Part shown: piece after piece, positions 231-11,140 of the stretch
How the letters are laid out: each line of letters opens with the position of its first letter
How positions within the stretch are numbered: position 1 is the stretch's first letter
Virus record (IMG/VR): IMGVR_UViG_2579779007_000005
Source: a virus
Lineage: Duplodnaviria; Heunggongvirae; Uroviricota; Caudoviricetes
Length of the DNA: 12,909 nt
Direction: 5' to 3' (one strand)
Position numbers and translations under genes: made by a program
Notes under the pieces: model-generated
Seen by the model: only the letters and a program-made list of their open reading frames with translations
What the model was told of the DNA's origin: nothing
Database searches by the model: none

Positions 231-616
231 GGGAAATTTGCTGGCAGTTTTGCTTAACCGTTATCATTTTTCGGCTATCCGCTATGAAGCTGGTGGATGA
301 TCACGGATAATCCGTTATGTGGATCCCCATATCGGCATCAGGCCCACCAGCGTGAAGCGTTTTTCATTTTTCGCGGGTATAAAAAATCGATGGGGCTGGC
401 AGTCCAGAAGACGTCAGGGTACAGAGATTTGACCCGCCCCTCCCTGTGCATAAGCACAATAAGTAACCGAAGGCGGAATTCCGCCCTCGGTACTCATATA
501 TGAGAAACGATATTTCTTCCACCGATACCCTTTATTTGGGTATCGCGAGTAAGCCCCAAAATCTGGGTGTTACTCTTACTACCCAAACTACGGGTAGTTT
601 CCGTAGTTTCATGGTC

Positions 617-636
617 GAGTTGCAGATCTGCAACTC
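617..636. repeat. Perfect 20-bp palindrome GAGTTGCAGATCTGCAACTC
   Basis: Exact dyad symmetry centred on AGATCT, in non-coding DNA, with no flanking T-run so not a typical terminator. Nearby hairpins: CGATACCC-tttattt-GGGTATCG (524-546) and AAACTAC/GTAGTTT repeats (585-609). Confidence 0.4.
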
Positions 637-775
637 ACCCACCAGCGCAAGCAGAGCCACTAAATGATACGATATGAAGTGATACAAATCAGTAAACCAC
701 TTCAATTTTAAAAGACGCTACTCAACACAGTAAAGCGCCTTTTATTATTGTTTATATGCTTTCGAAAACACAAAT

Positions 776-798
776 AAAAAGCACCAGTATGGTGCTTT
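776..798. terminator. Bidirectional rho-independent terminator downstream of the 822-1130 cargo gene
   Basis: Plus strand AAAAA-AGCACC-AGTAT-GGTGCT-TTTGTGCTTTT: 6-bp stem (780-785 / 791-796), with an A-run on one side and a T-run on the other. Confidence 0.55.
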
Positions 799-3281: not shown

Positions 3282-3332
3282 GTTCTTTTTTCGTCCAATT
3301 ATTTTCAAAAAAATTACTGTGCACAAAAATTT

Positions 3333-3392
3333 GAGGGGGCGGTCGGTGTCCGGCAGGGACGGTTTCGTCCTGAAAACCACCCCCACCCCCTC
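3333..3392. other. Candidate cos/packaging-site element in the HNH-terS intergenic region
   Basis: Inverted repeat GAGGGGGCGG (3333-3342) / CCACCCCCTC (3383-3392) with one mismatch, flanking the palindrome GGACGgtttCGTCC (3357-3370). It lies 50-110 bp upstream of terS inside a 288-bp non-coding gap (3282-3569). Confidence 0.3.
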
Positions 3393-9035: not shown

Positions 9036-9080
9036 AGGCTTTATCTCACAGCAGTAAATTAAAATTTTTGCGTTTTAACC

Positions 9081-9310
9081 CTTCACCTGTTCACCTTTTG
9101 ATATTTTCTCTTTTAATTCATAATGTTAATTGGTGAACAGTTTCACAAAAACTATTCACCAACTGTTCACCACTGTTCACCCTTGAAGCTCAATAAACAA
9201 TCAAAAAGGTGAACAGTGAATAGTTTGGTGAACAGTTCATAAATAACTGTTCACCCTATAATATACTGATATAAAAGATATTTATGACAGGGTGAACAGT
9301 GGTGAACAGT
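9081..9310. repeat. Iteron array, candidate origin of replication
   Basis: Nine perfect copies of the 9-mer GGTGAACAG or its complement CTGTTCACC: plus-strand CTGTTCACC at 9087, 9163, 9173 and 9247; GGTGAACAG at 9132, 9208, 9227, 9291 and 9301. Degenerate copies at 9081, 9152 and 9217. AT-rich spacers (for example 9256-9290) separate them. The array sits directly downstream of the primase/helicase stop. Confidence 0.6.
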
Positions 9311-9322
9311 TATTCCATAAGT

Positions 9323-11140
9323 TTAATTTTTGCTATCGTCATTAGTGACCGATACACATGATGGCATCCAGTCTTCTGATTCCTCCGTCAGTGTCACGTT
9401 TGAACGCAAACCGTGCTTCGTTTTCCGTTTCATATACTCCCTGCCATATTCCGCCATTGCCCCCGGCATATCTTTACCGAAGCGCGTCAGTGTTACAGGT
9501 TTACCAAACCCATGTGCCCTCATATAAGCCAGATAGGCATGATAGAGATACCTGCGTGGGCTGAATGGCACAATTTCAGCATTACCCACTAACAGGCCAT
9601 CACACATTACCGACGCCATGAGATAGCCGCAGAAGTCCACCAGCGAATCCCCCTCTCGCTTTATCGCCAGTGCTTCTTCAGATTTCTGCTGCTCATATAA
9701 CAGGCGTCTGGCTTCGTCCTGGTTAGCAAACCGTGTAAGCAGATGGCGAATCACTACCGCCAGCTCACCTTCTATTTTTTCCGCCAGCATTGGATCACGT
9801 TCGTTCTCCGGTACAACTTCCGAAAAATTGAATATCACCCGACGACGTGAGATCCCCCCGCTGCGGTCACTGAATGACATGGCGTTATTGTTAACCGCCA
9901 GCACTACTGCCGGAATACGCGTTGAGTAGGGGGCTTTGTGTTTCGGGTCAATTGCCACCTTGTCACCGCCTGTAATAGCCTTAATCCCTGCCCCATCACC
10001 AGCGTAGCGGGTCATATCCGGCATGATAATCAGCGAAAAGCCAACCACTAACGCGCGTTCCCTTGCATCTTCCAGCGCCTTCATGCTTGCCGATACTGTG
10101 TTGGCCTTACCCGCCAGCATGGTGCAAATCTCCGCCATCACGCTTTTACCACTTCCCCCTGGACCTGTTACCTCAATGAATAACTGCCAGTCGTACCGGT
10201 TCGCCAGCACCATGAATAATGCAGCCAGTACGCGATCCGCCTTGCGGTCATTCTCAGCCACCGAACGGCGTAACCACTTCCAGAAATTCGGCGCATGTGT
10301 TGCCAGCGTTTCCCCCTCTGCTGGTGGGCTGAAAGGTAATTCACTGGCAATTAACAACCAGTCGTTTTTGTTATGCTCCCGAAAATTACCTGTTCTGGTA
10401 TCAAATACCCCGTTACTGAATCCAATCAGGTTACGGGCTGTATTCCCCATTACAGGCAAACTTAACTTCATGGTATCGACCGCCGATTTAATGGCGTTCT
10501 GCGAATAGCTGATCTCCGCATCAATGAAAATCTGTGCCATAGCTCGCTGTAATTCTTTATCCTGTACTGGCTCCCATACAACGCCGTTGTAATGGTGAAC
10601 AGTGTCAGAGTCAGCATGAATCGCCAGTTCACCGCCATAATGTGCCAGGAGAACTTCGCCGCGTTGACTTGCTCCCATCTGGTTAAGCGCCAGTGATGAA
10701 GCGTTATCGTCTTTTACCCGCTCTTTTTTCTTTACAGGCAGTTCAACTACCTTTTTCTTTTCCGCCTGCTCTGCCCGTTCACGTTCCAGATATTCGCGCC
10801 AGTTCTCCCGTTTCTGGCTGTGCATTCCTTCAGGGTAATAATCAGCATCCCTGACACCTGCCACTGCCAGTTTCTGCCCGATGGTATTAACAAGCCCCGG
10901 ACGCAATAACCCCGCCTGATAGAGACGCACGCGATAGCGTCCGTCCGGTACGATTTGCAGGTTGTCCAGTTCGGCAAGTTGTTGCTCTCCAAGCCAGACA
11001 GGTGGCACGTTATCGCCAGCCAGTCGCCCGTCCTGTTCCTGCCACTGTTTCGCATGTGCCCACGCATCACTACCCGCAAAAATGATGACTTCCGTCATTT
11101 TGTCACGCGGCTGGTGTTTTAAATTTGGCGCTTTTTTCAT
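9323..11140 (-). CDS. P4-family primase/helicase-type replication protein (D5-like NTPase C-terminal domain); 605 aa
   Basis: Walker A GPGGSGKS and a Walker B-like LVVGFSLIIMPD are typical of the phage/plasmid primase P4-family C-terminal domain. The ATG at 11140 has a GGAGAG SD and ATGA coupling to the upstream gene, and is preferred over the GTG at 11155 listed in the ORF track. An iteron array lies immediately 3' of the gene. Confidence 0.85.
   Translation of the reverse strand: MKKAPNLKHQPRDKMTEVIIFAGSDAWAHAKQWQEQDGRLAGDNVPPVWLGEQQLAELDNLQIVPDGRYRVRLYQAGLLRPGLVNTIGQKLAVAGVRDADYYPEGMHSQKRENWREYLERERAEQAEKKKVVELPVKKKERVKDDNASSLALNQMGASQRGEVLLAHYGGELAIHADSDTVHHYNGVVWEPVQDKELQRAMAQIFIDAEISYSQNAIKSAVDTMKLSLPVMGNTARNLIGFSNGVFDTRTGNFREHNKNDWLLIASELPFSPPAEGETLATHAPNFWKWLRRSVAENDRKADRVLAALFMVLANRYDWQLFIEVTGPGGSGKSVMAEICTMLAGKANTVSASMKALEDARERALVVGFSLIIMPDMTRYAGDGAGIKAITGGDKVAIDPKHKAPYSTRIPAVVLAVNNNAMSFSDRSGGISRRRVIFNFSEVVPENERDPMLAEKIEGELAVVIRHLLTRFANQDEARRLLYEQQKSEEALAIKREGDSLVDFCGYLMASVMCDGLLVGNAEIVPFSPRRYLYHAYLAYMRAHGFGKPVTLTRFGKDMPGAMAEYGREYMKRKTKHGLRSNVTLTEESEDWMPSCVSVTNDDSKN

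Follow-up and report, generated by a model that had tools for sequence, protein, structure and literature searches.

Organization of the left end of the island

The window, that is the whole stretch of 12,909 nucleotides analysed here, is the left end of an E. coli phage satellite of the capsid-forming PICI type, a family described in 10.1101/2022.09.08.507074. Over the first 1300 bases, the identity to E. coli strain A41 is 99.8%. Position 1 lies directly upstream of thiM (minus strand), and the genes to the right, all on the minus strand, encode a DUF3892 protein, TerL, TerS (P27 family), an HNH protein, a portal protein, a prohead protease, a major capsid protein (MCP) and a D5/P4-alpha-like primase. 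In A41 the island continues with an AlpA-like regulator and a tyrosine integrase, adjoining rcnR. Directly after DUF3892 we observed a strong bidirectional terminator hairpin (778-798). The only sigma-70-like site in 1-1300, TTTACT-18-TAAAAT, is located at 705-734 on the minus strand and points to the hairpin module described below and to thiM.

A preliminary description of this DNA had reported a cluster of palindromes and hairpins in the non-coding region at 440-640. This cluster is real: the four elements listed are all present and dyads are far denser than expected by chance (z about -8.8). Three dyads can be added to the list (445-458, 493-504 and 547-575), and 445-636 consists of seven local hairpins placed back to back. 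A phage-type cos site at 362-444, which ends where the cluster begins, had been missed. The features of this end are as follows.

82-95, no strand assigned: 14-bp att identity block ATACGGGTATTTCT (attL core), inside the thiM TPP riboswitch
362-444, no strand assigned: phage-type cos site, 90-94% identical to the genome ends of SfII, SfV, SfIV and ST64B
445-458, minus strand: small hairpin H0, TGTGC-ATAA-GCACA, the first dyad past the end of the phage cos homology
466-491, minus strand: GC-rich near-palindrome centred on GAATTC, ACCGAAGGCGGAATTCCGCCCTCGGT, with one A.C mismatch
466-491, read as minus-strand RNA: 11/11 pairs (one G.U; 8 G-C) followed by UACUUAUUGU, giving a terminator-like hairpin
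493-504, no strand assigned: perfect 12-bp palindrome CTCATATATGAG, overlapping the short hairpin GAAA-CGATA-TTTC at 504-516
523-545, minus strand: hairpin H1, CGATACCC-N7-GGGTATCG; the loop differs among copies and two stem pairs have compensatory double changes
547-575, minus strand: hairpin H2, GAGTAA..CCCA-AAATC-TGGG..TTACTC, which includes the invariant 17-mer CCCAAAATCTGGGTGTT
578-609, minus strand: H3, two interleaved alternative hairpins (578-584/592-598 and 585-593/601-609)
617-636, no strand assigned: H4, perfect 20-bp palindrome GAGTTGCAGATCTGCAACTC
639-646, minus strand: Chi octamer GCTGGTGG, the right-hand mosaic boundary of the module

The coordinates given previously were correct for the near-palindrome (467-490, within the dyad that we delimit at 466-491) and for the 20-bp palindrome; H1, although present, had been placed one base off, at 524-546. 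The interleaved AAACTAC/GTAGTTT repeats correspond to H3, which is made of four ACTAC/GTAGT units, and one 9-nt unit is missing in one lineage. The most widely kept unit is H4, which persists alone in some helper-embedded satellites.

Folding of the hairpin region

Folding of 445-650 gave local hairpins only. For the hairpin region, the z-scores of the minimum free energy were -8.82 (RNA, plus strand), -8.80 (RNA, minus strand) and -8.68 (DNA), and none of 200 dinucleotide shuffles folded as well. In a sliding scan with 200-nt windows, 446-645 ranked second of 127 (z -7.0, for a median of -0.5), and the sole stretch above it is that of the replication origin, at about 9050-9345. The energy of the whole region was -93.6 kcal/mol on the minus strand versus -83.0 on the plus strand, and that of the 466-491 hairpin was -24.1 kcal/mol versus -19.5; in three sequence classes the GC hairpin is equally or more stable on the minus strand.

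None of the elements had been thought to be followed by a T-run. This holds for the plus strand, but on the minus strand 466-491 is followed by the T-rich tail TACTTATTGT, with 5 T in 8, and the hairpin was called terminator-like on this strand only, with a tail that is weak. The U-rich tail is kept in the diverged copies of class B (the classes are defined below); it is lacking in class C, and the remaining hairpins of the module are also without a U-run. All the hairpins are local and each has a different sequence, as would be expected of elements that act through structure and not through dimer binding.

The attachment site lies within the thiM riboswitch

The cluster had been proposed as a possible recombination or attachment site, with comparison to an empty-site chromosome named beforehand as the check. 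This comparison placed the island boundary about 350 bp to the left of the cluster, at the att block, and a boundary that maps elsewhere had been named in advance as refuting this reading. A second copy of ATACGGGTATTTCT is located just outside the integrase (positions 30716-30729 of locus L002); beyond this right-hand copy we found the 5' half of the thiM TPP riboswitch, and the 3' half lies left of the left-hand copy. The truncated TPP aptamer at 35-169 scored 34.3 bits against a gathering score of 54.3 and was the sole real Rfam match at the permissive threshold. When 1-95 of the window was joined to L002 from 30730 onward, we obtained an uninterrupted thiM riboswitch-rcnR site, annotated 'riboswitch', that exists in 4728 of the 5426 complete E. 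coli genomes; the contiguous empty site is absent from the other 698 (about 13%). In addition, the direct repeats (A/C)TGACCACACA, twice at 163-185 and also on the integrase side (L002 30565-30588), flank the att core in a segment of about 80 bp that is similar at both island ends, and they are probably the arm-type sites of the integrase. Satellites with other targets have different repeats at the arm position, for example GGTGTAGTTAAT in two copies or CTGCAATACATG in four. No tRNA or tmRNA was found by a scan of the window.

The insertion splits the aptamer of the thiM riboswitch: the 3' half stays with thiM, and the 5' half, together with the thiM promoter, is found by the integrase, about 14.7 kb away. 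Since the satellite sits inside the aptamer, thiMD must be expressed with neither its own riboswitch nor its own promoter, and the thiM promoter comes to stand upstream of int.

On the basis of the identity blocks at 82-95 and L002 30716-30729 and of the contiguous empty site in 4728/5426 genomes, we rejected 440-640 as the att site of the island. Moreover, the module is common to satellites with at least four integration sites (thiM, clpS and the lambdoid prophage genes gpA and gpE), and thus co-varies neither with the recombinase nor with the target. The satellites at gpA and gpE are the helper-embedded satellites of PMC10111431.

A phage-type cos site adjoins the module

In a search of phage genomes with 300-720, the only match was 362-444, and no match to 445-650 was detected even at E<=10. 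This segment is 82% identical to the annotated cos-site region of phiP27, whose 10-nt cos-site (a misc_feature) aligns to 392-401, and the genome ends of SfV join at 408|409 of the window. In phages of the SfII/SfV/ST64B/phiP27 type, the 83-bp segment fills the gap from the stop codon of the HNH gene to the start of terS. The TerS binding site of HK97 is 15-29 bp away from the cut, towards terS (PMC11331095); by analogy, the A-tract at 379-386, leftward of the cut, may occupy the position of TerS binding. The phage homology stops at 444, exactly at the start of the dyad cluster, and the hairpin module is also found away from cos; we therefore discarded the idea that it is part of cos.

A second cos-like site is present at about 3300-3392, in the same orientation and in the canonical HNH-terS gap, and can be aligned with the first site and with phiP27. 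The two sites differ: that of the left end is SfV/ST64B/phiP27-like, and the one between HNH and terS is diverged, of the island's own type. This suggests that two terminases, the element's own and that of a helper, could both package it. A PICI with two cos sites has a precedent in EcCICFT073 (PMC6092414).

The window is also rich in Chi octamers, with 13 in 12.9 kb versus 0.41 expected from shuffles and about 2.8 at the density of the E. coli genome. Minus-strand Chi, of which there are nine among the 13, have the orientation that is active when RecBCD enters from the cos end packaged last. Three Chi lie within 360 bp around cos, at 289-296 (plus), 344-351 (minus) and 639-646 (minus), and those at 289 and 639 each face a cos-cut end; following the orientation rule of PMC12315714, the octamer at 639-646 is oriented for activity with RecBCD entry from the cos-cut end at about 409. 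The richness in Chi resembles that of lambdoid phages without a recombination module (PMC12315714).

Distribution and classes of the module

Positions 330-660 were found in 672 of 5426 E. coli genomes (about 12%), with up to six copies per genome, and the att-proximal segment 96-330 in 134 E. coli genomes only. When IMG/VR was scanned for the 20-bp palindrome, 68 loci were obtained. In all the contexts that we examined, the module follows the last late gene of a PICI-like satellite, at the end distal to the integrase, and keeps one orientation. In most lineages it begins about 35 bp past the stop codon of this last gene, which is on the same strand and encodes a protein of 93 aa; no intrinsic terminator separates the two. 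The packaging modules that accompany it are a full capsid set with HNH, TerS and TerL, a ClpP-MCP fusion with DUF1441, or an MCP with a decoration protein and TerS.

Three classes were distinguished, with sharp boundaries at 444/445, 519 and 641-646. In class A the homology starts at 300, 330 or 361 and runs to 646, including the phage-type cos, and the module is at the last-packaged end of mature DNA. In class B it covers 444-646, without the phage-type cos. In class C it is limited to 519-641, the GC palindrome is on the opposite side of the core, and cos is 2.8 kb off in the HNH-terS gap (locus L005). A few loci retain only H4 and the next 10 bp. On the right, the homology breaks off at 641-646 at nearly every locus. 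We counted the module in 30 of 52 relatives that have the adjacent 93-aa gene in common and are sequenced far enough downstream; in the others, its place is taken by a different cos variant or by other hairpin units that each include an IHF-consensus motif. This presence in 30/52 relatives, together with the varied contexts, indicates that the module is optional and independent of cos position, integrase and terminase type.

A 25-mer from H2 had no match in 185,579 representative genomes (one per species). The 20-bp palindrome had five matches in these genomes, in unrelated MAGs with no flanking homology, and we took them as chance. The plasmid search gave three E. coli records only, all typed non-mobilizable, one of them a 10.8-kb circular (excised) PICI and another a chromosome-sized 4.9-Mb record. 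The 10.8-kb circular 'plasmid', NZ_CP148328.1, is a complete excised PICI of this satellite family, in which the hairpin module, cos and attP sit between the last gene and int.

Several loci have unusual layouts of their own. In the IMG/VR loci L014, L024, L036 and L053, about 430 bp with a third cos variant lie between two copies of the hairpin core, an arrangement that suggests tandem or recombinant satellite ends; the same 430 bp contain GCGGGTTAT iterons around an AT-rich stretch and are origin-like. Arrays of repeated units were observed in L005 (9130-9410) and, downstream of the 93-aa gene, in L120, L142 and L106. Each unit consists of the last codons and the stop of the 93-aa gene, a perfect IHF core consensus TAACNNNNTTGAT and a short hairpin such as CCTCAAATTGAGG, GCGCAAAATTGCGC or CCCCCATTGGGGG. 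These arrays resemble the scars that repeated exchange of cassettes would leave at the satellite end.

Conservation and covariation

In comparisons of loci with about 82% DNA identity in the neighbouring 93-aa gene, the identity of the core (519-636) was about 94%. The mean pairwise identity by segment is 96.5% for H2-H4 (547-636), 92.9% for H1, 92.5% for 445-518 and 72.5% for 637-646. In the 90 nt of H2-H4 only 4 columns are polymorphic, and the loops and linkers are nearly invariant. Judged from the alignment, such strong sequence conservation argues for some function or drive.

H1 shows compensatory changes, C-G to T-A via C.A and A-T to C-G, and RNAalifold identified two pairs kept through two-sided changes. 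Covariation is confined to H1: 33 of the 35 predicted pairs are without a two-sided change, most being invariant or nearly so. Since the stems other than H1 never vary, they carry no information for or against structure. The A.C/G.U position of the GC hairpin is fixed in 27 of 27 unique copies. Transitions in the predicted stems leave G.U at 7 pair positions on the minus strand versus 2-5 on the plus strand. The substitutions, with few informative changes among them, appear to lean to a structure of the minus-strand RNA.

Search for genes and known elements

The region had been described as free of a credible ORF. Two mechanical ORFs do cover it, at 500-667 (plus strand) and 532-705 (minus strand); neither has a Pfam match or a conserved stop, and RefSeq annotates no CDS at this region in the near-identical strain A41. 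Based on the alignment, we tallied 6 synonymous to 6 non-synonymous variable positions for the minus-strand ORF ending at 532, which is not significant, and 2 to 7 for the plus-strand ORF. A small protein gene was rejected, since there is no Pfam match, no Shine-Dalgarno sequence in the minus-strand ORF, and its stop is lost in class C. With Rfam 15, 445-646 gave nothing at the gathering score, and chance-level matches only at E<=10. No paper containing the palindrome sequence was found in the literature.

Other candidates were also set aside. A P4-type ori/crr, recognised through iterons that the alpha-type primase-helicase binds, did not fit, as the TGTTCACC iterons cluster at 9100-9325 and none is in 440-640. 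At 9100-9325, just downstream of the primase-helicase gene, there are dense P4-type iterons (GGTGAACAG/CTGTTCACC), direct and inverted, and this array is likely to be the replication origin. Operators in common with the island promoters were dismissed because the half-sites of the palindromes occur nowhere else in the window, and a plasmid oriT or ssi signal because the plasmid matches are the three non-mobilizable-typed records only. We looked for a partner gene by co-occurrence, and none in the upstream 2.5 kb is exclusive to the module. We know of no convincing likeness to the XerCD/dif, sigma-54, CytR, LexA and similar consensuses, with which the palindromes were compared by eye.

Possible roles of the module

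Taken together, 445-646 is a modular, hairpin-forming non-coding spacer that is specific to a family of E. coli PICI-type satellites. On one side of it is the last gene of the late (packaging) operon, and on the other the cis end region with cos, Chi and the att arms (in the excised circle, also attP and int). The spacer has the anatomy, position and conservation described above, and is distinct from both the att site and the phage-homologous cos.

We tentatively propose, as the likeliest of several possibilities but with low confidence, that the module acts in minus-strand RNA, as a hairpin array that ends in the terminator-like hairpin 466-491 and closes the late operon. The late transcript would run on the minus strand through H4, H3, H2 and H1 and would end at the GC-rich hairpin with its U-rich tail. 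The array would thereby stop late transcription ahead of cos and the att arms, and hence ahead of int in the excised element or thiMD in the integrated one, and could give the late mRNA an exonuclease-resistant 3' end. From the features of the DNA, we infer transcription of the region, termination there and any stabilising effect. The proposal is consistent with the start of the module about 35 bp past the last stop codon on the same strand, with no intrinsic terminator between in most lineages, and with a GC hairpin that pairs 11/11 and has a U-rich tail on the minus strand only, a tail still U-rich in class B. The asymmetry of the folding energies, for the GC hairpin in three classes and for the whole region, and that of the G.U pairs in the stems (7 versus 2-5 pair positions) point the same way, as do the two compensatory pairs and freely varying loop of H1 and the fact that the hairpins are all local and of unlike sequence. 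However, simple terminator or stabiliser hairpins do not need the near-invariance of H2-H4, loops and linkers included, and covariation is seen in H1 only. In addition, the lineage of the window already has a canonical terminator (778-798, minus strand) between its last gene, DUF3892, and the module; the hairpin at 466 has a weak U-tail; class C has its GC hairpin on the opposite side of the core, with no U-tail; and phage late transcripts normally read through cos, such that insulating cos is no necessity.

Two other explanations are nearly as likely as this minus-strand RNA role, each being somewhat less probable in our estimation. According to one of them, the module is a DNA-level cis site bound by proteins, for example a packaging or termination accessory by cos, a DNA-end or recombination function with Chi, or sites for host or helper factors. 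Several spacerless perfect palindromes, typical of the sites of dimeric proteins, speak for such a site, and so does a primary sequence conserved, even in the loops, well beyond the adjacent coding gene. The module also keeps company with cis sites (cos at 362-444, three Chi in 289-646 and the att arms), it is at the last-packaged end of mature DNA in class A, and other lineages have an iteron/AT-rich ori-like block at the same place. Nevertheless, each palindrome is different, no half-site recurs elsewhere in the island and no gene of the upstream 2.5 kb co-occurs exclusively with the module, which is, moreover, optional (30/52 related loci). The cos of HK97 type is compact, with TerS 15-29 bp on the other side of the cut (PMC11331095), and the module is also found 2.8 kb from cos (L005) or, in helper-embedded satellites, not adjacent to it. 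The other explanation, to which we give the same weight, is that there is no dedicated function, and that the module is a mosaic of leftover palindromic units (old terminators, scars of 3' gene ends) kept uniform by recombination or gene conversion driven by cos ends and Chi. Here the optional presence (30/52) counts in favour, along with a family that is highly mosaic, with sharp boundaries at 444/445, 519 and 641-646, a right homology boundary that falls exactly at Chi 639-646 in most loci, and 10-bp direct repeats, CCCACCAGCG, that flank the block 343-646. The neighbouring arrays of relatives, with their duplicated units of gene 3' end, hairpin and IHF consensus, look like recombination scars, and the occurrence of the module in E. 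coli-derived data only suggests a young age. But with a fold z of -8.8, seven distinct dyads need an origin; the uneven conservation within one contiguous block (96.5% versus 92.5% versus 72.5%) is not predicted by simple tract homogenisation; and the core is retained across at least four att contexts while its flanks were replaced. A little more doubtful still is the proposal that H2-H4 (547-636) form a functional core that is particular to the satellites and strongly constrained in sequence, either a structured RNA or a DNA site recognised by protein, which would act with the adjacent cos and Chi sites on packaging, on protection from RecBCD on entry or on insulation from the host or helper.

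The two remaining explanations trail. It is unlikely that the module specifies a trans-acting sRNA of about 235 nt on the minus strand, from the promoter-like site 734-705 to the hairpin at 466, or a tiny protein from the minus-strand ORF of 26-57 aa ending at 532. The sigma-70-like site at 734-705 is indeed the only one called in 1-1300, the invariant loops and linkers would suit base-pairing seeds, and 6 of 12 variable positions are synonymous in the frame of the ORF. Yet this promoter-like site is in lineage-specific DNA, with no promoter conserved on either side of the core across classes, there is no Rfam match, and the ratio of 6 to 6 is not significant; as for the ORF, it is without a Shine-Dalgarno sequence or a Pfam match, and its stop is in the variable H1 loop and lost in class C. 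An attachment or recombination site of the island is very unlikely, its own att site being already refuted for this location. The module is near the island end, its dyads resemble core-type sites and homology breakpoints cluster at its edges; against this, the identity block is at 82-95 and the arm repeats at 163-185, the reconstructed empty site exists in 4728 genomes, satellites with different integrases and targets have the module in common, and the breakpoints of the tandem copies are outside H4, not at its centre.

Comparison with known systems

The module is most like the extragenic palindromic units and terminators found at operon ends. As in the REP/BIME elements of E. coli, which are extragenic mosaics of short, unlike palindromic units directly downstream of the last gene of an operon, relatives of the module are associated with perfect IHF-consensus motifs (TAACNNNNTTGAT), and the same roles, protection of the mRNA 3' end and termination, are proposed. 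Unlike REP/BIME, the module is confined to one mobile-element family and not dispersed in the chromosome, is far more conserved in primary sequence and has no link to a RAYT transposase. We know of no sequence similarity of the module to the REP consensus.

With respect to the HNH-cos-terS arrangement of HK97/phiP27/SfV-type phages, the module adjoins a true homologue of cos (362-444), and in this lineage it is on the last-packaged side, where lambda, with its cosQ-cosN-cosB order, has cosQ. However, the phages have the 3' end of HNH where the module stands, the homology stops at 444, no phage was found with the hairpin module, and the module also exists away from cos. Like the attP arms of P4/CP4-57-like elements, the module is non-coding, repeat-rich and near the element end, but the real core and arms of the island are at 82-95 and 163-185 and the module is independent of the integrase type. 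The host element encodes MCP, protease, portal, HNH, TerS and TerL, as do the cf-PICIs (EcCIEDL933), whose published description neither maps cos nor mentions the hairpin module (10.1101/2022.09.08.507074). It also resembles the PICIs with two cos sites (EcCICFT073, SaPIbov4) in having two cos-like sites, as in EcCICFT073 (PMC6092414), but those of the island differ in specificity type, one phage-like and one its own.

Significance for the satellite family

PICIs and cf-PICIs are major gene-transfer vehicles in E. coli, and their cis-acting DNA is poorly mapped. One element is now mapped for the att core, the arm repeats, two cos-type sites, the ori iterons and the Chi sites. In addition to these, it has a conserved module of 200 bp, which is found in about 12% of E. 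coli genomes and is not accounted for by any of the att, cos, ori and Chi functions. If the module is functional, it would offer a handle on the termination of late transcription or on the management of DNA ends in satellites; if it is not, it would be a clean example of homogenisation bounded by cos and Chi. Should the reading of H2-H4 as a constrained element be true, this core would be a previously undescribed cis element of PICIs and helper-embedded satellites. As a sequence marker, the module is also convenient for tracing this satellite family.
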